DNA of 16,565 nucleotides. Origin: a virus (lineage: Duplodnaviria > Heunggongvirae > Uroviricota > Caudoviricetes). Positions within the stretch are counted from its first letter, which is position 1, and the number at the start of each line of letters is the position of its first letter. Shown one piece after another: positions 47-13,724 of this stretch. The DNA lies in the IMG/VR virus record IMGVR_UViG_2667527959_000010, positions 1-16,565 of that record. One strand, written 5' to 3'. The notes under the pieces are model-generated. The model made no database searches, was not told where the DNA came from, and was given only the letters and a program-made list of their open reading frames with translations. Position numbers and translations under genes: made by a program.

Positions 47-709
47 TTGCAACAGTGCCTCGACGGGACCAAATACAGGAATGTCTGGGTTGTTGGTGAT
101 CTGCATGGTTGCTACACCAGACTGATGTCCGAACTCCATCGTGTGGATTTTGACCCGGCGCAGGATTTACTGATATCGGTCGGCGACCTTATCGATCGCG
201 GCACCGAAAATGTTAAATGCCTGGAGCTATTGCAGATGCCATGGTTCAGAGCGGTTATGGGCAACCATGAGCGGCTGATGATTGATGCGTTAAGTCCTGA
301 TGGCAACGTGAATAACTGGCTAATGAATGGCGGTCAATGGTTCTTCATGCTGGACGCTGATCAGGAAATATTAGCCAGGGCGCTGGTGGAGTTGGTAAGA
401 CGACTGCCCTATATCATTGAGTTGAACACCGGGCAAGAAACTATCGTTATAGCTCATGCCGACTATCCGGATAATGAATATCAATTCGGTAAGGAGGTGC
501 CGCTTTTCAATGTTGTCTGGGCGCGCGAGCGTATCAGTGATTCGATGGATGATATTGGTGGCGAAATTTCGGGCGCAGATCGTTTTATCTTTGGTCACAC
601 TCCGGTGAAAAGCCCGAAGACATTCTGGAATCAGCATTATATCGACACTGGTGCCGTATTTTGCGGAAACCTGACATTGATGAAAGTGAAAGGTGATGGT
701 GCAGCATGA
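47..709 (+). CDS. Serine/threonine protein phosphatase, PPP family (lambda phosphatase-like)
   Basis: 220 aa with PPP metallophosphatase motifs GDLHGC, GDLIDRG, GNHE and HADYP, and an N-terminus that aligns with lambda phosphatase as recalled. Only in-frame start after the upstream stop at 26-28 is TTG at 47, with no clear SD, so the start is uncertain. May correspond to a P1 phosphatase gene by position (from memory, unverified). Confidence 0.85.
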
Positions 710-3817: not shown

Positions 3818-6800
3818 CTATATTTTTCCGCCTACGCCTTTAAACTTCTCAATAAACGAGACGATTTTCTGGAAAACTGCCTGTTTTTTCGTTTTATATT
3901 GCGGATTCAACGGACTAAGTTTTGGTAATGTTTCGTTTAATTCTGTGCCATTTTCGGTGGCGTATTCGCGTTTTAAAGACGTGCGAATATAGCGTTTTGC
4001 TGCATCTTCATTAAGATTTTCTTCTTTTATCAATGCTTCTGCTTCACGTTGCTGTTCGCGTTGAGCAAACGTAAAGAATGCGTCAATGATGCTGGCTTTG
4101 TCCGGTAAATCATCCAGGTTCGTTTGCTGAATAAAATCGACCACCAGGCCCTCTTTAGCACGGTTCCCTAGGCTTGAACGAATTAAGCGTTTGACCTCTT
4201 CGATCATTTCGCCCTTGCCTTTATTTTGTCTGTTGTGTTCGAAAATCAGTCCAAGGATATAATCCAGGTTTATTTCCTGAGACTTCAGCAAATCGACCTC
4301 AAAAACTACGTCATCCCAGTCAGTGGTTGATTTCTCTTTTTTCTCAGCTTCTTTCTCACGGCGCTGCCAGTCGCGAATATCGTTATAGGCAGAACGATAA
4401 TCCTGAATCTTGCGATCAGCAGGGAGACGAATTGTTTGCAATTCAGCGAGCTTTTCATCATCCACATAATGTTCTGCTTTGAATTTTTCTACTGCAACAG
4501 GATCGCTAAGATCGATTTGTTGCAGGGCTTTCAGCGTGGCAAATTCATCATAGTTTTGCAGGATGTTCTCGGTACGCAGGTATTCACCAAACAGTTTAAC
4601 GAAGTCTTTCTTCTCTTTTTCACTTTCAATACTGGTAGGGTCAGGGAACCGTTGTTCCAGTTCTGAAACTACTGTCATGAAGCCGCGTTTAGCTTCACCA
4701 GTGGCAGCATCAGTAAAGCCTTCCATATACTCTGCATAACTCTTTTCTAAAACCACATTTTTGGTATTTTTGTCACCAAACAGCGTTATGGCATCAATAG
4801 TTGAGCGTTCCAGATCCCGGAAAGTGACGATATTACCGAAGGTTTTAGTTGCATCATAAATACGGTTGGTGCGGGAAAATGCCTGCATCAAGCCGTGAAA
4901 ACGCAGGTTTTTATCGACGAATAGCGTGTTCAATATTGGAGCATCGAAGCCAGTTAAAAACATCCCCACGACAATTAACAGATCGATATCCTGATTTTTA
5001 ACCCGCTGGGCTAAATCACGATAGTAGTTCTGAAAACCGTTACTGTCGGTGCTGAAGTTAGTTTTAAAATAGCTGTTATACTCACGAATTGCAGCATCAA
5101 GAAACTCTTTAGCACTGCTGTCCATTGCGCTGGTATCAAAAGTTTCATCGGAAATTTCACCAATGGCATTTTGTTCTTCATTGGCAGCAAAGGAGAAGAT
5201 TGTCGCAATATGCAGCGGTTTATAGGTGGCCGATTTATTAGCTGCTTCCTCTTGTAACCGTTTAAACGTCGCGTAATAGGCTTTTGCAGCATCCACGCTG
5301 CTCACTGCCAACATAGCATTAAAACCTTTTGAGCCAGGGAAGGTACGGTGGGTTTTCTGGCGGAAATTATTCAGAATATATTGCGTGATTTCCTGAATAC
5401 GCATGGGATGAAGAAACGCCTGCTGATTTTCAGCCGCACTCAGTTTTTTCTCGTCAGTTTCTGTCTCTAAAGACTTAAACTGTGGCCGCACATCGTTGTA
5501 GTCCACCTTGAATTTGAGCACTTTTTCGTCACGAATCGCATCGGTAATTACATACGAATGCAATTCACGACCAAATACGCTGGCGGTTGTTTCTGAGCCT
5601 AAGGCGTTTTCCGGGAAAATAGGGGTGCCGGTAAAACCAAACTGATAATAGCGTTTGAATTTCTTCTTCAGGTTTTTCTGCGCTTCTCCAAACTGGCTGC
5701 GGTGGCATTCATCAAATATAAACACCACTTGCTGATTATATACAGGCAGGTCGCTTTCTGCTTTCATCAGGTTATTGAGTTTCTGAATAGTAGTGACGAT
5801 AATTTTGTTATCGTCCTTATCCAGATTTCGTTTAAGGCCTGCGGTATTTTCCGAGCCGTTGACGCTGTCTGGCGAAAAACGCTGATATTCCTTCATGGTC
5901 TGGTAATCGAGGTCTTTCCTGTCGACCACGAAGAAGACTTTATCAATAAAGTCCAGCTCTGTTGCCAGACGCGCGGCTTTAAAGCTGGTGAGGGTTTTAC
6001 CAGAACCGGTAGTGTGCCAGATATACCCACCGCTTTCCGGTTTTGACCAGTTCTTCGCTGTAAAGGAGCTCTTAATTTTCCACAGAATGCGCTCGGTGGC
6101 AGCAATCTGGTACGGTCGCATCACCAGTAGCGTCTGACTGCTGTCAAAAACGCTGTAGTTCACCAGAACATTAAGCAGAGTATGTTTCTGGAAAAAGGTA
6201 GCGGTAAAATCTTTGAGGTCTTTAATCAGCGTGTTGTCTGATTTCGCCCAGTTCATGGTGAAGTCAAAACTGTTTTTATCGCGCTTTGTTGTGTTGGCAA
6301 AATAACGGGTATCGGTGCCGTTAGAAATGACAAACAGTTGCAGATACTTAAACAGGGAATTTTCGCTGTTAAAACTCTCTTTACTGTAACGATGTATCTG
6401 GTTGAAAGCCTCACGAATCGCCACGCCGCGCTTTTTCAGTTCGATTTGTACCAGTGGTAAGCCATTAACCAGGATCGTGACGTCATAACGGTTAGCATGA
6501 GAACCCGTCTGTTCAAACTGCTGGATAATCTGCACCTTATTGCGCATGAGATTCTTTTTATCTATCAAATAGATGTTCTCAAGTCGCTCGTCATCAAAAA
6601 TAAAGTCGCAAATATAGTCGATATGGATTTTACGGGTCTTATCCAGAATGCCATCGCTCGGGTTGTCCAGATACTGCTCCGTGAAACGCCGCCACTCGCT
6701 GTCATTAAACACCACACCATTGAGGCTCTGAAGCTGTTCCCGAACATTGGACAGCATAGCCGACTGAGATTTTACGGATATAAATTCATAGCCCTGATTC

Positions 6801-6934
6801 CGCAGGTCCTGAATCAGTTCACGTTCCAGGTCCGATTCGCTCTGGTAGCTGTCGCCTGTTTGCTCAGCTTTGATGTACTTATCAAGGACGATAAAGTTAT
6901 TGGATTCAGCAATGGTGTGTGTTTGATGAGTCAT
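3818..6934 (-). CDS. hsdR: Type I restriction enzyme R subunit (HsdR), type IC-like
   Basis: 1038 aa. Walker A TGSGKT, DEAH-box FDECHR, and an N-terminal PD-(D/E)xK-like nuclease motif (D...IELKK). Length matches EcoR124I HsdR as recalled. SD AAGGA upstream of the ATG at 6934. Confidence 0.95.
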
Positions 6935-7055
6935 AGCGCATCCTTTGTGCCGCCTGGCAAGGGCCGGAAGGGCGTTAAGAGTGACTTCCGGCGCGTAAAA
7001 AATAGTCTATATACAGACCGGGTGTTAAGGTGGCCCGGTCGGTAGCAATGGTCAA

Positions 7056-8312
7056 TTAATTACTGACAGTTTCAGGTGTTGGGAAACTGAACAGTAAATC
7101 ACGATAGTACTCGTATTGTTTCTGGCGCAACTCGATTTCACGCGGAAGACCTTCGGTGATGGAGTTGGTCAGGGTGTCGAATTTATCGAGCAGAGCAGAT
7201 ATTCGCTCTTGTTTCTGTTTATCAGGCAATGGCACTGGTAATGTTTTTATAATATCTGCATTCAAGTTACTGACCGACCCGCTATTGATTTTACTTTCCC
7301 AATAATTTTTCACCTTTTTTGATGAAAGATAGTGATACAGATAATCAGCATTTAATTTTTCACCAAAATTGCTGATTGATGCCCATCCATCATGGATAGC
7401 TCCGGTTATCCTTAAAATATATGGTCTGCCAAAGCTCATAGAGTTAGAAATGACGAAATCACCGGGGTTCAAGATTCGCGATTTTTGGGCACCCTCTGCA
7501 GTTATTTTTTGTAAGGTTTTGTCAATGTATTTAGAGCCGGGTATAGTATCTCCGATTTTAATCCATGGGATACCATTTCCTTGTTCAGTAAGATAATTAA
7601 CAATTGGTCTGGGGGATGCCCCTCGTTGTATTTTGGCTACTTCTCCCAATGCCTTCCACTCAACCTCACCCTCATCAAAACTCAGCAATTGGTCGCGATA
7701 GTAGTTGTACTGTTTTTTACGCATGTTAAGCTCAGCGGTAAGCTCAGCGGTAAGTGCAGTAAATTTATCCAGAATCCGAACGATTTCAGACTGGATGGCA
7801 AGGGATTTTTCCGGATTATCCGGGCAAGGGATTGGGATGAGTAGTTTTGACATCAATGCATTTGAGCTTAGGTTCGGTTGTGCTCCGCCCCCGGCGAGGA
7901 TATAAATAGTCTCTGTATTTAACAATAAAAAATGGTATAAATAATTATTGTTTAGAATATTTTCTTTGGGTATGAATTTCCCAACCCGTTGGTTAAGATA
8001 ACATTTTGTTCCTTTTTTATAAATTCCTACCTTTCCTGTAGTGGCACCTGACATTGCAATCAATATATTTCCCATAGATACCTCAAAGGAGGATAAATCT
8101 TCCTTGTAATCATTTAGTGAAAAGTATTTCACCTCATCTAAGTCAACATTAAATCCATCTATATTTGTGATTCTGACTATCGGTAACCCAGTTTCTTTAA
8201 ATAAGCTGCTTTTAAATGCAAATCCATTTTTAAAATCACAAACATCCTTCAAGGGTTTCCACTCAACCTCAACCCCATCCAGCAATTTTTCCAGATAACT
8301 TAACTCGCTCAT
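7056..8312 (-). CDS. hsdS: Type I restriction-modification specificity subunit (HsdS), type IC-like
   Basis: 418 aa with two variable target-recognition regions separated by the conserved central region ...[33 protein letters not shown], and a C-terminal conserved repeat ...[36 protein letters not shown], as in the EcoR124I/EcoDXXI family. Confidence 0.95.
7730..7753 (-). repeat. Tandem 12-bp repeat (2 copies) encoding TAEL-TAEL in the HsdS central conserved region
   Basis: GCTCAGCGGTAA x2 on the plus strand, which is ACCGCTGAGCTT x2 in the coding sense. A degenerate partial third unit follows. Confidence 0.8.
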
Positions 8313-9871
8313 TTTTGCACCTCGCAGCCTTCAATTTCAGCCACAATTGCATCAATATCTTTACGCAACTGGTCGATTTTGCTGACCGTGGTTTTCAGCT
8401 CAGCATTCAGCTCACCGATATCGATAATTTCGCGGTTATCTTTCGCTTCCACATAGCTGCTCACCGACAGGTTATAGTCATTCGCGACAACGGCTTCAAA
8501 CGCGACAGATTTTGCCAGATGAGCAACATCTTCCTTGCTGGCAAATACCTGCATAATTTTTTCTATATGGGCATCGGTCAGAATGTTGTTGTTAGTCTCT
8601 TTTTTGAACAGTTCGCTGGCATCAATAAACTGAACTTTGGTATCCGTTTTATGTTTAGACAGCACCAGAATATTTACGGCAATGGTGGTGCCAAAGAACA
8701 GGTTCGGTGCGAGTGAAATCACGGTTTCGACATAGTTATTGTCGACCAGATACTGACGGATTTTCTGCTCCGCGCCGCCACGGTAAAAAATACCCGGGAA
8801 GCAGACAATCGCGGCGCGACCTTTGGCCGAAAGATAGTTCAGCGCATGTAGTACAAACGCAAAGTCAGCTTTGGATTTGGGGGCCAGAACGCCAGCCGGG
8901 GCAAAACGTTCATCGTTAATCAGCGTCGGGTCATCGCTGCCAATCCATTTCACCGAATACGGTGGGTTAGATACGATGGCGTCAAACGGTTTTTCATCTC
9001 TGAAGTGCGGCTCAGTCAGCGTATTGCCCAGCTTGATATCAAACTTGTCGTAGTTGATATTGTGCAAAAACATGTTCATACGCGCCAGGTTATAGGTCGT
9101 ATGGTTGATTTCCTGACCGAAAAAGCCTTCTTCGATGATATGGTTATCAAACTGTTTTTTCGCCTGCAACAACAGTGAGCCGGAACCCGCTGCCGGGTCG
9201 TAGATTTTGTTAACGCTGGTCTGCCCGTGCATAGCCAGTTGTGCAATCAGCTTGGAGACGTGCTGCGGTGTAAAGAACTCACCGCCTGACTTACCGGCAT
9301 TTGCCGCATAGTTAGAAATCAGGAACTCATAGGCATCACCGAACAGGTCAATCTGATGTTCGTTGAAGTCACCAAGTTTTAACCCTTCAACCCCTTTCAG
9401 AACCGCAGCCAGGCGGGCATTTTTATCTTTAACGGTGTTACCCAGGCGGTTACTGGTGGTATCGAAATCAGCAAACAAACCTTTGATGTCAGCTTCTGAA
9501 GGATAACCGTAAGCAGAACTTTCGATAGCAACGAAGATGCTGTTTAAATCTGCATTCAGTCTGTCATTAGTATTTGCTTTCGCAGCTACGTTGCAGAAAA
9601 GCTGACTGGGGTAGATGAAGTAGCCTTTAGTTTTGATGGCATCGTCTTTAATGTCATCAGTAATTACGCTGTCATCCAGTTTCGCATAACAGATACTGTC
9701 ATCACCGGCTTCAATATAGCTGGAAAAATTTTCGCTGATAAAACGGTAGAAAAGTGCGCCCAGAACGTATTGCTTAAAATCCCATCCATCGACCGAACCC
9801 CTGACATCGTTAGCAATTTGCCAGATTTGACGATGAAGCTCTGCACGTTGTTGAATACTTGTCATTTTCAT
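8309..9871 (-). CDS. hsdM: Type I restriction-modification N6-adenine DNA methyltransferase subunit (HsdM)
   Basis: 520 aa. AdoMet-binding motif [10 protein letters not shown] and catalytic motif NPPY ([10 protein letters not shown]). Its stop overlaps the hsdS start by 4 bp. N-terminus [13 protein letters not shown] matches my recollection of EcoR124I HsdM. Confidence 0.95.
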
Positions 9872-10010
9872 CCACTTATTTCAGGCTTATGTAATTGGCG
9901 GTGATTCTACAGCAACTTGGATGCTTTAGCAGTTCGGACATTAGGCTACGAATGACCTGCCTAGAGGTTTGTTAAGCCGCAAAGTGCTGGTGCTTTATGC
10001 CTGTGAAGTT

Positions 10011-10040
10011 TATAATTGTGTACACATAACGAGTACACGA
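10011..10040 (+). promoter_or_regulatory. phd-doc promoter -10 (TATAAT) and Phd/Doc operator palindromes
   Basis: TATAAT at 10011-10016 is followed by the perfect palindrome GTGTACAC (10018-10025) and a second near-copy GAGTACAC (10031-10038), just upstream of SD GAGGTG and the phd ATG. Consistent with the autoregulated phd-doc operator described for P1. Confidence 0.6.
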
Positions 10041-10047
10041 GGTGTTT

Positions 10048-10269
10048 ATGCAATCCATTAACTTCCGTACCGCGCGTGGCAACCTTTCTGAAGTGCTCAA
10101 CAATGTTGAAGCCGGGGAAGAGGTTGAAATCACCCGCAGAGGCCGTGAGCCAGCAGTAATTGTCAGCAAGGCTACTTTCGAAGCCTACAAAAAAGCGGCG
10201 CTGGATGCTGAATTTGCATCCCTGTTTGACACCCTGGACTCCACCAACAAGGAACTGGTTAACCGATAA
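10048..10269 (+). CDS. phd: Phd antitoxin (prevent host death)
   Basis: 73 aa, [41 protein letters not shown]..., matching P1 Phd as recalled. SD GAGGTG 4 nt upstream. The ORF track's 10042 GTG start adds two residues; ATG 10048 is preferred. Confidence 0.95.
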
Positions 10270-10649
10270 TGAGGCATATATCACCGGAAGAACTTATTGC
10301 GCTTCATGATGCGAATATAAACCGCTACGGCGGCCTGCCGGGCATGTCAGATCCGGGTAGGGCAGAGGCCATTATCGGGAGAGTTCAGGCCAGAGTTGCC
10401 TACGAAGAGATCACCGACCTTTTCGAAGTCTCCGCCACCTACCTGGTGGCTACAGCGAGAGGGCATATATTCAATGATGCCAATAAGCGTACCGCGCTAA
10501 ACAGTGCGCTGTTATTTCTACGCCGTAACGGGGTGCAGGTATTTGATTCACCTGAACTGGCAGACCTTACCGTAGGGGCTGCGACCGGAGAGATATCTGT
10601 ATCTTCTGTCGCCGACACGTTACGTAGATTGTATGGTTCTGCGGAGTAG
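10269..10649 (+). CDS. doc: Doc toxin (death on curing), Fic-family kinase
   Basis: 126 aa with Fic motif [11 protein letters not shown]. Start overlaps the phd stop (TAATG). Matches P1 Doc as recalled. Confidence 0.95.
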
Positions 10650-10653
10650 ATTA

Positions 10654-10833
10654 ATGGCACGCAAATACAACAAATTGTCCCGTGAAGCGTTAAAGATGCT
10701 TCTTGATGGCGTGAGTCGCCGCAAGGTAAAGCAATACCTGGTTGGTAAGCAAATTGGAGTCAGGACCGCTATTGCTGTGTTATGCCGTCAGGAAATGGTT
10801 GCGCTTAAACAGAGAATGCCGGGCAGCAGATAA
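10654..10833 (+). CDS. Small basic protein downstream of doc (pdcA-like by position), 59 aa
   Basis: ATG at 10654 with SD GGAG about 9 nt upstream. An alternative in-frame ATG at 10633 lies inside the doc 3' end without an SD. K/R-rich sequence; named only by position after doc. Confidence 0.5.
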   Translation: MARKYNKLSREALKMLLDGVSRRKVKQYLVGKQIGVRTAIAVLCRQEMVALKQRMPGSR

Positions 10834-10860
10834 AGCCCAATCAGTGATGAAAGGTGTGAT

Positions 10861-11904
10861 GTGAAAGCCGTAATTACTCCCTTTGTACAGAAAGAGCTTG
10901 GCCTCGCCACGTTCAAAGTGGATCAGGAGGTCAGAAAGCTGGTGGAGGCTGGCCGTAAATTTATTATGGAGCCGGTGCCGCGTGAGTTAATCGAGCACAT
11001 GGAAGACGGCCTCGTTGTTACCGAGCAAACCATGGCAACAAATGAGGCGTTGCAGCCGTTTTTTAACAGCGATGAACTGTTTCGCCGTATTGGTGGAATT
11101 GACGCGCTGGTGGCGTGGTTGCGTAGGAAAGAGGGTCAATGCCAGGCCGCAGATCGTAGTTGGTGTGACAACCATATTGTCCACGCTGAACGAGACAATA
11201 GCGCGGTGTTGTTGTGCTGGCATCACGATAACCATTATCGGATGCGTGGTTTTAATGAGCTGAAAGAAACGCTGCACAATAATCGCGTTAACTGGATACT
11301 GGATGTCGCCCGTCAGGAAATGGGCCTTTCAAATAGCCATGATTTAAGTATTCAGGAGCTGTGCTGGTGGGCTTTCATGCGCAACATGATGCACCTGATG
11401 CCGGAAGAAGTCTGCCGCATATCAATAAATAAGATGAAGGCTACTCCGCAGGATAGCGGACCTCTGAAAGAGGCGGATATTCGCCCGTATGACGATCGCG
11501 CTACAGCATATGTGCAGATGATGGAAGAACGCGCCGCGCCGATGCGTGCAAAAGTATGCCCTGTGGATGTTGACTCCGACCCTGGCATGGCGCATTTCAA
11601 AATACCAAAACTGCAATCGCTAAAATTACCTGAGTACATGGACTTTGTTGCTTCCCGTCCATGCTGTGGGTGTGGAGCTGCGGGAGCTGGCGCTCACATT
11701 ACGCCTTATATCGTTCGTCATAGTCGATTATGCGCGCATGACATTTACGCAATTCCTCTGTGCCAGTCATGCCAGCGTGATATTGAGCGTGACCGCGATA
11801 ATTGGGAGAAGACGCACGGTAGGTTGGCGATGCATCAACGATTGTTCTTTGATTACGCGCTTGGAGTGGGCGTTATCACAAGTCATTCGTCGAGTGTTAG
11901 ATAA
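10861..11904 (+). CDS. Hypothetical protein, 347 aa, with C-terminal Cys/His cluster (pdcB-like by position)
   Basis: GTG start at 10861 with SD AAGGTG (10851-10856). C-terminal region PCCGCG...H...H..LCAHD...LCQSCQ suggests a metal-binding module. Function unknown. Confidence 0.75.
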
Positions 11905-11905
11905 A

Positions 11906-11922
11906 ATTGCTCTAATGTATTG
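11906..11922 (+). promoter_or_regulatory. C1 operator-like site upstream of lpa (ATTGCTCTAATGTATTG)
   Basis: 13/17 match to the C1 operator consensus, first 11 positions identical. Overlaps a TTGCTA -35-like hexamer (11920-11925) spaced 16 bp from a TATTAT -10-like hexamer (11942-11947). Confidence 0.6.
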
Positions 11923-11992
11923 CTATTTCTTTAATCGAGGGTATTATATTCCACGTTGATTAGTTGACATGGGCTAATCAGTAGGTGACAGG

Positions 11993-12445
11993 ATGTTACT
12001 TAACTGGCAGGGACGCCACTTCATGGAAATAAATCACTCACGAATAACATCGTACGAGATTGCGGATTACATGATCCGCACTAAATCTCTTCTATCAGCG
12101 AAAGAACTCGCAGCAATTCTTGAAAAGGAATACCCGCATCTGGATGTCGATAAGCGCGATGTTTATCTGCGCTTAAAGGCTATCGCTGTGTCTAAGTATT
12201 CGTCTGTTTTGATAGATGACAGTACACGCCCACGTAGATTTCAGATCCACTCTCTGAATCCTGAATTCTTTCGCCGTAGCCGCGCTCCGCGCCGGTTTGA
12301 TGAAAAACTCCAGAACGAACTCTATATGACGCAGGACGAAAAGGAACGCCGGGAGCACCAGCCTTGGGTAATGGCGCGTCAACTTTTCAATAAGGTGGCC
12401 CGTCAGCACCGTCATTACGGTAATGCCACATCCGCACGTATCTGA
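11993..12445 (+). CDS. lpa: Late promoter activator Lpa (P1 gene 10-like)
   Basis: 150-aa basic protein in the conserved P1 position between doc/pdc and pacA, preceded by a C1 operator. Assignment is by synteny and size, not by a recalled sequence. An internal ATG at 12023 is an alternative start. Confidence 0.75.
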   Translation: MLLNWQGRHFMEINHSRITSYEIADYMIRTKSLLSAKELAAILEKEYPHLDVDKRDVYLRLKAIAVSKYSSVLIDDSTRPRRFQIHSLNPEFFRRSRAPRRFDEKLQNELYMTQDEKERREHQPWVMARQLFNKVARQHRHYGNATSARI

Positions 12446-12455
12446 TTGATTGCTT

Positions 12456-12474
12456 GCCCGTTCCGGGCCTTTTG
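12456..12474 (+). terminator. Short GC hairpin plus T-run (weak terminator or attenuator candidate) between lpa and pacA
   Basis: GCCCG-TTC-CGGGC followed by CTTTTG, 11 nt after the lpa stop. Confidence 0.35.
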
Positions 12475-12530
12475 ACATGTGACTTTCGTTACCCTCGCGT
12501 CAAAAAGAGTTTTTACGAAAGGAAGCATAA

Positions 12531-13724
12531 GTGACCTGGGACGATCACAAGAAGAATTTTGCTCGCCTGGCGCGAGATGGTGGTTACACCATCGCACAGT
12601 ATGCCGCCGAGTTTAATCTTAACCCTAATACCGCACGTCGTTATCTCCGTGCATTCAAAGAAGACACCGGAACAGCGGACAGCCGTAAGCCAAATAAGCC
12701 TGTCAGGAAACCACTAAAAAGCATGATCATTGATCACGCTAATGATCAACGTGCAGGTGATTACGTTGTGGCTGAAATGGCTGAAAAACAAAAAGTTAAT
12801 GCTGTTGTTAGTGCCGCAGTCGAGAACGCTAAGCGCCAAAATAAGCGCATAAATGATCGTTCTGATGATCATGACGTGATCACCCGCGCCCACCGTACCT
12901 TACGTGATCGCCTGGAACGCGACACCCTGGATGATGATGGTGAACGCTTTGAATTCGAAGCTGGCGATTACCTGATAGATAACGTTGAAGCGCGGAAGGC
13001 CGCGCGCGCTATGTTGCGTCGGTCCGGGGCCGATGTTCTGGAAACCACTCTTCTGGAAAAGTCTCTTTCTCATCTCCTTATGCTGGAGAACGCCAGGGAT
13101 ACGTGTATTCGCCTGGTGCAGGAAATGCGCGATCAGCAAAAAGACGATGATGAAGGTACTCCGCCTGAATACCGTATCGCGAGCATGCTAAACAGCTGTT
13201 CCGCGCAGATAAGCAGCCTGATCAACACCATTTACAGCATCCGGAATAACTATCGAAAAGAAAGCCGGGAGGCGGAAAAGCACGCTTTATCTATGGGGCA
13301 AGCTGGCATTGTTAAGCTGGCATACGAACGAAAGCGTGAAAATAACTGGTCAGTGCTGGAAGCGGCTGAATTCATCGAGGCGCATGGAGGAAAAGTGCCG
13401 CCCCTGATGCTGGAGCAAATCAAAGCCGATCTGCGTGCTCCTAAGACCAATACCGATGATGAGGAAAACCAAACAGCATCTGGCGCTCCATCACTTGAAG
13501 ATCTGGATAAAATCGCGCGAGAACGGGCCGCCAGCCGCCGCGCTGATGCGGCATTGTGGATTGAGCATCGTAGAGAAGAAATTGCCGATATCGTCGATAC
13601 AGGTGGTTATGGTGATGTCGATGCGGAAGGCATATCAAACGAAGCATGGCTTGAACAGGATCTGGACGAAGACGAGGAGGAAGACGAAGAAGTTACCCGC
13701 AAACTGTACGGGGATGATGATTAA
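12531..13724 (+). CDS. pacA: Terminase small / pac-recognition subunit PacA
   Basis: 397 aa, GTG start with SD GGAAG. N-terminus [28 protein letters not shown] matches P1 PacA as recalled. Acidic C-terminal tail. Contains the pac site. Confidence 0.9.
12724..12882 (+). other. pac packaging site: clustered TGATCA/G hexamers carrying Dam GATC sites, inside pacA
   Basis: Left cluster TGATCA at 12724, 12731 and 12743, plus a degenerate TGATTA at about 12758. Right cluster TGATCG at 12854, TGATCA at 12866 and 12877. Architecture matches the P1 pac description (4 left + 3 right hexamers). Confidence 0.75.

Follow-up and report, generated by a model that had tools for sequence, protein, structure and literature searches.

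PdcB of a P1-like phage-plasmid is a DUF968-family His-Me finger protein with replaced catalytic histidines

The stretch of DNA analyzed here (the window) comprises the 16,565 nucleotides (nt) of the IMG/VR virus record IMGVR_UViG_2667527959_000010, assigned to Caudoviricetes, and belongs to a P1/P7-like phage-plasmid. Over positions 10000–12600, its identity at the nucleotide level is 99.6% with P7 and 99.2% with P1, and E. coli plasmids of ~100 kb match the whole window at 100% identity. Our subject is the pair of genes at 10654–11904, pdcA and pdcB, and above all the 347-amino-acid (aa) product of pdcB. A preliminary description of the window, made from its letters, had placed here two open reading frames (ORFs) between a toxin-antitoxin pair and lpa; both ORFs are found, and phd and doc upstream and lpa downstream are placed by Pfam matches and annotation. 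The gene order is the one annotated in P7 and P1—phd, doc, fdc/pdcA, upf95.7/pdcB, Op(lpa), lpa, pacA, pacB, c1—with the same ORFs. P1 PdcB and P7 Upf95.7, as well as P1 PdcA and P7 Fdc, are 99% identical to the products of this element, from which they do not differ in any substantive way. The features of the locus are as follows.

10011–10016, plus strand: −10 box TATAAT of the promoter Pphd, part of the phd-doc operon entry
10042–10649, plus strand: phd-doc addiction operon, with phd at 10042–10269 and doc at 10269–10649 (Pfam PhdYeFM and Fic/DOC, P1 annotation)
10654–10833, plus strand: pdcA (fdc in P7), an ORF of 59 aa with a GGAG Shine-Dalgarno sequence
10861–11904, plus strand: pdcB (upf95.7 in P7), 347 aa, GTG start and TAA stop, DUF968 family
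11906–11922, plus strand: C1 repressor operator Op(lpa), ATTGCTCTAATGTATTG, placed here by the annotation of P7 and of P1
11920–11947, plus strand: Plpa, the sigma-70 promoter of lpa, TTGCTA-16-TATTAT (promoter scan and P1 annotation)
11993–12445, plus strand: lpa, the late-promoter activator (Pfam BPP1_LPA, E 3e-57)

Position 11904 is the final base of the pdcB stop codon, and Op(lpa) starts 2 nt past that codon. The gene precedes the lpa promoter, which is under C1 control, and does not extend into it.

PdcB is the P1-lineage member of the YdfU/DUF968 family and ends in a His-Me (HNH) finger of ~85 residues. The Pfam model DUF968 (PF06147) aligns over its entire length (profile positions 1–171 of 171) with residues 161–337, scoring 170.4 bits against a gathering cut-off of 27.8 (E 4.6e-50). 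The full-length protein is matched by PHROG_96, labeled 'HNH endonuclease' (E 1e-128), and the RefSeq copies in P1, P7, SJ46 and RCS47 carry the same name. DUF968 has been classed with DUF1364/YbcO in group 7 of the His-Me finger superfamily, with RusA and Q as gene neighbors and a proposed role in recombination (PMC5714182); the fold assignment of PdcB is thus already present in the literature and in RefSeq. Our AlphaFold model, built on a 39-sequence alignment, has a mean predicted local distance difference test score (pLDDT) of 86.5 and contains a beta-beta-alpha unit (280–284, 297–301, 302–310) that can be superimposed on solved His-Me finger nucleases. Profile–profile alignment (hhalign) of the family C-domain recovers PhiNM1 Gp16 (E 7.3e-7), YbcO (E 2.7e-5; the sequence used is that of 3g27 at 96/96 residues) and Ref (E 5.3e-5), and the PCxxC element, the His motif and PLCRxxH are in register across all three. 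The preliminary description had read the C-terminus as metal-binding or possibly HNH-like, to be checked by structure prediction or profile comparison. As far as the fold is concerned, this reading is borne out by the DUF968 and PHROG_96 matches, the modeled finger and the alignments to relatives with a nuclease fold. The regions of PdcB referred to below are listed with their window coordinates.

11140–11319, plus strand: residues 94–153, N-terminal beta-beta-alpha unit and putative second zinc site, candidate ligands C94, C102, C119 and H122, motif LCWHHDN
11341–11625, plus strand: residues 161–255, helical middle with motifs ELCWWA and KE(A/S)DI, matching the first half of Pfam DUF968
11626–11880, plus strand: residues 256–340, C-terminal His-Me (HNH) finger, strands 280–284 and 297–301, helix 302–310
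11662–11772, plus strand: residues 268–304, Cys/His cluster; C268, C271, C301, C304, H293 and D294 retained, catalytic positions replaced

The kinship to Ref and YbcO is visible only by structure and profile–profile comparison. A C-domain profile built from P1-type sequences only no longer detects YbcO, Ref and Gp16 (E 0.02–0.09), and searches of PDB sequences with PdcB, the P1-type profile and the C-domain profile return no meaningful match. NCBIfam yields nothing significant for PdcA or PdcB, and no PADLOC defence model matches either protein at E ≤ 1. PdcB is likewise unmatched at E ≤ 1 by Pfam PF16786 (Ref) and PF16784 (HNHc_6), the models for RecA-dependent nucleases; HNHc_6 is matched weakly by canonical members of the DUF968 family, but not by PdcB of the window. 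We also looked for an Orf/NinB-like domain N-terminal to the finger, of the lambda Orf fold (1PC6) known from the fusions of Curtis et al. 2014, and saw none in PdcB. A deep search of 1.84 billion representative proteins retrieved 207 relatives at E ≤ 1e-3, and the N-terminus MKAVITPF is kept in all homologues. Chimeric assembly or a recombinant prophage junction is the likeliest origin of several database proteins (P0045, P0086, P0087, P0148, P0033, P0055) in which the N-terminal 160–300 residues of PdcB/YdfU are followed by a domain of the tail-fibre, portal, tail-tip (gpJ) or glycine-rich kind.

The C-terminal cluster of PdcB reads C268-C269-G-C271-G ... H279 ... H287 ... C291-A-H293-D294 ... 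C301-Q-S-C304, which is the pattern CCGCG...H...H...C.H.D...CQSC reported for the end of the 347-aa protein in the preliminary description. Conservation separates its members. In a set of nine P1-type homologues, the most divergent at 37% identity, C268, C271, H293, D294, P299, C301 and C304 are invariant, and C268 and D294 remain so in the alignment of 39 full-length family members. The two histidines listed earlier, H279 and H287, are not conserved among homologues; like C269 and C291, they are incidental. The invariant cysteines supply the CxxC ... Cxx(C/H) pattern of a structural zinc site, and C268, C271, C301 and C304 are predicted to hold the finger as a Cys4 site. C304, invariant across P1-type orthologues, stands at the position of the zinc ligand H184 of Gp16.

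The catalytic positions are a different matter. Canonical lambdoid members carry the motif QPCxxCG..ADDPHHxIGHGxGGMGxKAHDxFxIPLCRx[C/H]HxELH, from which the P1-type clade has lost a loop of 7 residues. In active relatives, strand 1 ends in the general-base histidine (the second His of HH, the 'AH' of YbcO, H113 of Ref, H157 of Gp16); this position is His in 63/82 family members as well as in Ref, YbcO and Gp16. In PdcB it is taken by I284, the last residue of the predicted strand 280–284, and by L or M in other P1-type orthologues. Its neighbor, the first His of HH, corresponds to Y283 in PdcB and to F in the other orthologues. Neither His nor Asn occupies the metal-ligand positions of the helix: H185 of Gp16 corresponds to Q305 (Y or A in other P1-type orthologues) and H189 to E309 (A, R, S or V). 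We classified the 82 complete C-domains of the family in an hmmalign alignment by the number of catalytic histidines and zinc ligands retained.

50 domains: 4/4 catalytic His and 4/4 zinc ligands
13 domains: 4/4 catalytic His and 3 or fewer zinc ligands
17 domains: 0/4 catalytic His and 4/4 zinc ligands; these are the P1-type clade, including the window
2 domains: 1/4 catalytic His and 4/4 zinc ligands (P0001, P0065)

Of the two single-histidine entries, P0001 is the 99%-identical P1 cluster, which was mis-registered by hmmalign and counts with the P1-type clade, and P0065 is a separate outlier. All of the lambdoid viral loci from IMG/VR are canonical (23/23), and the canonical HH...CH..LH set is absent from the four lpa-adjacent loci that were read (L003, L004, L064 and L070) and from L012, L070 having a His after its CxxC. 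Since Ref, YbcO and Gp16 all have the histidines, the P1 state is a derived loss. No P1-specific conserved residue is seen that could substitute for them; H293, D294 and D311 are conserved in canonical members too. With Y283, I284, Q305 and E309 at the catalytic positions, the nuclease activity considered in the preliminary description becomes doubtful for the P1-type clade. In its deepest branch (36–38% identity), one or two histidines lie near the catalytic positions and differ between close relatives, the CDYCY of P0020 being CDYCH in L070; such scatter is the pattern of unconstrained positions.

A side observation concerns the 13 lambdoid-type members with incomplete zinc sites (e.g. P0040, P0047, P0064, P0074, P0095, P0102 and P0123): all four histidines are kept, while 1–3 zinc ligands are gone (PCVVTG..., PLSxxAH). 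Degeneration in this one family is thereby reciprocal—either zinc ligands or histidines are lost, and none of the members has lost both.

Despite the lost histidines, pdcB is under purifying selection. Compared with a 69%-identical orthologue, the proportion of non-synonymous differences (pN) is ~0.19 in each of four regions, against a proportion of synonymous differences (pS) of 0.62–0.82, which is saturated. The gene is also among the 21 most conserved in 77 P1-like phage-plasmids (PMC9603915). Pseudogene decay, which we considered, is ruled out by the pN/pS values and by this conservation. At the same time pdcB is non-essential: CRISPR interference (CRISPRi) knock-down leaves an efficiency of plating of ~0.7 (PMC10695390), and insertions of a kanamycin-resistance gene (kanR) are viable and give stable lysogens (PMC10067587, PMC10999674). 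Its neighbors lpa, pacA and pacB are essential (PMC10695390). The preliminary description had held that the lack of a deletion phenotype would speak against a regulator or nuclease, and the knock-down and insertion results go part of the way to that outcome. A literature search found no described function for PdcB or YdfU. For PhiNM1 Gp16, which is the closest relative of the C-terminal finger to have been characterized and is reported as a RecA-dependent nickase, growth inhibition is abolished by zinc-ligand mutants, unaffected by H157A and partially relieved by H185A and H189A (PMC12817073); in this relative, the zinc finger can outweigh the nuclease centre.

A second Cys/His motif, outside the Pfam model and not mentioned in the preliminary description, lies at 11140–11235 (residues 94–125). 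It reads C94-Q-x6-C102 ... L-C119-W-H121-H122-D123-N124 and is found throughout the YdfU/DUF968 family. Among the 39 full-length members (consensus CQ...LCWHHDN), C94 and C119 are conserved in at least 90%, position 102 is Cys or His, and position 122 is His or Cys across relatives. That Cys and His replace each other at 102 and 122 points to a further zinc site, carried by a beta-beta-alpha unit. Modeled alone, residues 1–160 reach a pLDDT of 88, with strands at 106–111 and 114–119 and a helix at 120–129. The conserved residues coincide with the zinc-ligand positions of the C-terminal finger: a first pair at 94 and 102, C119 ending strand 2, and residue 122 one turn into the helix, while the nearly invariant D123 occupies the helix metal-ligand position. 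Direct alignment of the N- and C-terminal domains by hhalign is not significant (E 0.07), though the strand-Cys-helix registers coincide, and the alignment of the N-terminal domain to Ref consists only of a 10-column 'LC(R)WHH' match (E 0.005). Foldseek returns no match for the N-terminal region, no Pfam model covers it, and in no family member does its first strand end in a conserved His. The N-terminal half of PdcB is probably a second zinc module of HNH-like or treble-clef topology that, as modeled, would lack the catalytic histidine.

Our preferred interpretation, to which we assign a probability of roughly 0.55, is that PdcB is a nuclease-dead, zinc-stabilized His-Me finger protein whose action on DNA is to bind and not to cut, with an accessory function derived from a YdfU-like recombination-region nuclease. 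P1 PdcB would no longer cleave DNA by the HNH mechanism; its dead nuclease fold, together with the N-terminal and probably zinc-binding Cys/His module, would serve to bind DNA. If its relatives are a guide, the target might be branched DNA, recombination intermediates or RecA-associated DNA. The protein would act as a dispensable accessory factor, probably expressed by read-through from Pphd together with phd-doc-pdcA.

Several points weigh against this interpretation. The loss of activity is deduced from sequence alone, and in the P0020/L070 lineage, at the base of the clade, histidines reappear near catalytic positions and make the loss less clear-cut. Since H293 and D294 are invariant and E309 and D307 are acidic here, a non-canonical active site is possible; the conserved N-terminal HHDN could also supply catalytic residues in trans. 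Both zinc sites are predictions from Cys/His conservation and the modeled fold, and AlphaFold models lack metals. What the data show is which genes these are, their family and fold, the missing histidines, the selection and the synteny; lost activity, zinc content, DNA binding by PdcB and its co-transcription with phd-doc are things that we infer.

The same residues are the basis for a competing and less likely interpretation, in which PdcB still works as an HNH-type endonuclease and cuts intermediates of recombination or replication, the role proposed for lambdoid YdfU, NinG or Ref, by means of non-canonical catalytic residues such as H293, D294, D307 and E309 or of H121-H122-D123-N124. By fold and family PdcB belongs with nucleases, its name in RefSeq is 'HNH endonuclease', and the C-domain is under purifying selection; the invariance of H293 and D294 and the family-wide conservation of HHDN are in keeping with activity as well. 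However, the general-base position is aliphatic (I/L/M), and the helix positions vary (Q/Y/A and E/A/R/S/V) in a way that active-site residues do not. H293, D294 and D311 cannot be regarded as compensatory, since they are equally conserved in canonical members with four histidines, and the N-terminal unit has no conserved His to end its first strand. An activity of this kind is accordingly something we regard as unlikely, although it has the better standing among the alternatives.

We hold it improbable that the P1-type PdcB is a pseudo-nuclease in the stricter sense of a YdfU/Ref-like HNH protein that has lost its active site but kept substrate recognition, binds RecA-coated or branched DNA and leaves it uncut, which could shield the plasmid prophage, or tune or antagonise host nucleases or the RecA-dependent nuclease Ref that P1-like elements themselves encode. 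The same low standing applies to a companion proposal, namely that the N-terminal module is a remnant of the C-terminal finger fold or has converged on it.

The genomic surroundings of the family bear on two further proposals. In 56 IMG/VR loci with PdcB of at least 95% identity, the order is phd-doc-pdcA-pdcB-lpa-pacA wherever the contig reaches. The distant P1-type homologues in L004 (69%), L064 (67%), L070 (38%) and L003 (36%) lack phd, doc and pdcA, and have lpa ~90–200 base pairs (bp) downstream, usually followed by pacA; in the P0021 lineage (L012/L013), lpa is not nearby. Canonical members reside in lambdoid nin regions, with RusA beside them or ~1 kb upstream, and with the Q antiterminator gene 3–90 bp downstream in 15/23 viral loci and also in L006–L009. 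DUF968-family genes are found immediately upstream of a late regulator in two unrelated systems, Q (L006–L009, L071–L093) and Lpa (L003, L004, L064, L070), an adjacency that may reflect inherited gene order only.

This placement is the motive for regarding PdcB as a regulatory partner of the late-gene switch, which would bind DNA or RNA polymerase near the lpa promoter, or modulate Lpa or the pacase. Such a role would explain why the gene stands just upstream of lpa in P1-type elements and of Q in lambdoid ones; it is consistent with a pdcB-lpa adjacency that persists at 36–69% identity in elements devoid of phd, doc and pdcA, with the short distance from canonical members to Q, and with a C1 operator that abuts the pdcB stop codon. 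On the other hand, the L012/L013 lineage does without a nearby lpa, and in lambdoid phages the nin recombination region (NinG, YbcO, RusA) ends just where Q follows, so that adjacency may amount to gene order (PMC5714182, PMC4118853). Moreover, lpa is essential whereas pdcB is not (PMC10695390), and Pfam searches find no helix-turn-helix or sigma-like domain in PdcB. We consider this role quite improbable. A part for PdcB as a terminase-associated HNH protein like HK97 gp74, aiding pac cleavage by PacA/PacB, is very improbable: pdcB, lpa, pacA and pacB are indeed syntenic in P1-type elements, but PdcB has none of the catalytic histidines, its gene is separated from pacA by lpa, pacA and pacB are essential in contrast to pdcB (PMC10695390), the lambdoid relatives lie in the nin region far from terminase, the sole terminase-side HNH gene seen (L006/L007) is of another family (PF01844), and HNH proteins of the Ref type have no kinship with those associated with terminases (PMC4330346). 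That pdcB can be spared already implies, in part, that pac cutting and packaging run normally when it is missing.

The first gene of the pair, pdcA, is real but tiny. Its ATG at 10654 lies 5 nt past the doc stop codon and has GGAG 8 nt upstream. An in-frame ATG at 10633 is an alternative start that would give a 66-aa product overlapping the end of doc, the form annotated in P1 and P7; the 59-aa form is favored by PHROG_3345, which covers residues 8–66 of the long form, and by most database entries. PdcA has 15 Lys/Arg against 3 Asp/Glu residues (net charge ~+12), in agreement with the small basic protein that the preliminary description placed after doc. It belongs to PHROG_3345 (E 7e-43), which carries a function-less label, and Pfam, PHROG and NCBIfam searches assign it to no other family and to no fold. 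Its homologues are 73–100% identical, mostly 59 aa long, named PdcA, and all from P1-like elements; 29 unique alleles are free of stop codons, with a pN/pS of 0.27. A nucleic-acid-binding role would be a guess from charge alone.

Gene order ties pdcA to phd-doc and not to pdcB. The gene directly follows doc in the 56 viral loci and in phage D6. In D6 (L094 3538–4341), phd-doc-pdcA forms a three-gene cassette with no pdcB, which suggests that PdcA is a third component of the addiction module or a passenger on it. Because pdcA accompanies phd-doc in D6 and pdcB accompanies lpa-pac elsewhere, the two genes that follow doc come from different modules: the 'pdc pair' is a juxtaposition of the addiction cassette, with pdcA, and the lpa-pacAB block, with pdcB. 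The preliminary description had treated the two as one unit attached to the addiction module, a view that the D6 cassette and the distant elements with pdcB but lacking phd, doc and pdcA contradict. Its emphasis on a position between that module and lpa retains one half of its sense, as the linkage to lpa recurs in distant elements and the linkage to phd-doc does not.

A scan from the doc stop codon to the pdcB stop codon finds no promoter-like site on the plus strand and no terminator-like site. One terminator-like hairpin lies within doc (10493–10508); overall, the scan gives no more hits here than on shuffled sequence. The simplest inference from the absence of such sites between the two stop codons is transcription of pdcA and pdcB from Pphd, which makes the phd-doc operon their probable transcriptional source. 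There is no terminator-like site from the pdcB stop codon to lpa either (11902–11992); if pdcB is transcribed from Pphd in lysogens, read-through into lpa must be stopped, and a C1 roadblock and Rho are candidates. A mini-ORF of five codons (ATG AAA GGT GTG ATG TGA, 10847–10864), whose stop codon and the GTG of pdcB overlap (GTGA), could couple or attenuate pdcB translation. Two minus-strand ORFs within pdcB (10987–11277 and 11352–11639) are unsupported, and an Rfam scan of the whole window gives no match.

Further observations concern the neighborhood. Directly upstream of phd, the window carries a complete type I restriction-modification cassette on the minus strand (3818–9871; hsdR 3818–6934, hsdS 7056–8312, hsdM 8309–9871), in which the R subunit has an EcoR124-type C-terminal domain. 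P1 has hot-lxr-humD at this place, a region listed as hypervariable among P1-like plasmids in a published survey. According to the P1 record, phd-doc shares 98% identity with plasmid DNA that precedes the EcoDXXI hsd locus, and the hsd/phd-doc junction may be both old and mobile. A gene for a calcineurin-like phosphoesterase (Metallophos) stands at the start of the window (47–709); in the P0021 lineage, a Metallophos gene is immediately upstream of the P1-type DUF968 gene (L012 3886–4578; L013 5211–5903). In L013, a Ref-family (RecA_dep_nuc) gene at 904–1482 lies ~5 kb from the 38%-identical PdcB homologue, and P1 likewise has ref.

The genes pdcA and pdcB, the DUF968 family and the HNH-like fold were already known. 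What is added here is modest: an inactivated active site, as predicted for the P1 type, the reciprocal loss of zinc sites in some lambdoid members, and a probable second, N-terminal Cys/His module. The label 'HNH endonuclease' in RefSeq and PHROGs is probably wrong functionally for the whole P1-type clade. The P1-type proteins, which keep the zinc site and have lost the histidines, and some lambdoid ones, which keep the histidines and have lost zinc ligands, form a natural pair in which to separate scaffold and DNA binding from catalysis. One of the most conserved function-unassigned genes of a model phage thus acquires a concrete hypothesis, and it is a gene that routinely serves as a neutral insertion site and as a polymerase chain reaction marker for P1-like phage-plasmids.

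Among known systems, YdfU of the Qin prophage and its lambdoid DUF968 relatives are closest to PdcB. They share with it the CWHHDN N-terminal region, the ELCWWA middle and the C-terminal finger, at 25–30% identity over ~98% of the length, as well as a position just upstream of a late-gene regulator. They differ in keeping DPHH, CHxxLH and the extra 7-residue loop, and in having Q as the neighbor, whereas the P1-type proteins are without the four histidines and have Lpa. PhiNM1 Gp16 has a C-terminal HNH finger homologous to that of PdcB, with a CxxC...CxxH zinc site that is essential for its phenotype (PMC12817073). It scores 389 bits on HNHc_6 and 29 bits, above threshold, on DUF968; its H157, H185 and H189 stand opposite I284, Q305 and E309, its N-terminal domain is NinB/Orf-like, with no such match for PdcB, and beyond the finger the two proteins are unrelated. 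P1 Ref (3PLW) keeps both of its HH motifs and cuts RecA-bound DNA (PMC4330346). PdcB, which lacks those histidines, is twice as long, has different N-terminal domains and is unmatched by Pfam RecA_dep_nuc. YbcO of DLP12 and phage 82 (DUF1364, 3G27) is a single domain of 96 aa with the histidines of 'AH' and 'CH', while PdcB is a multi-domain protein that has neither.

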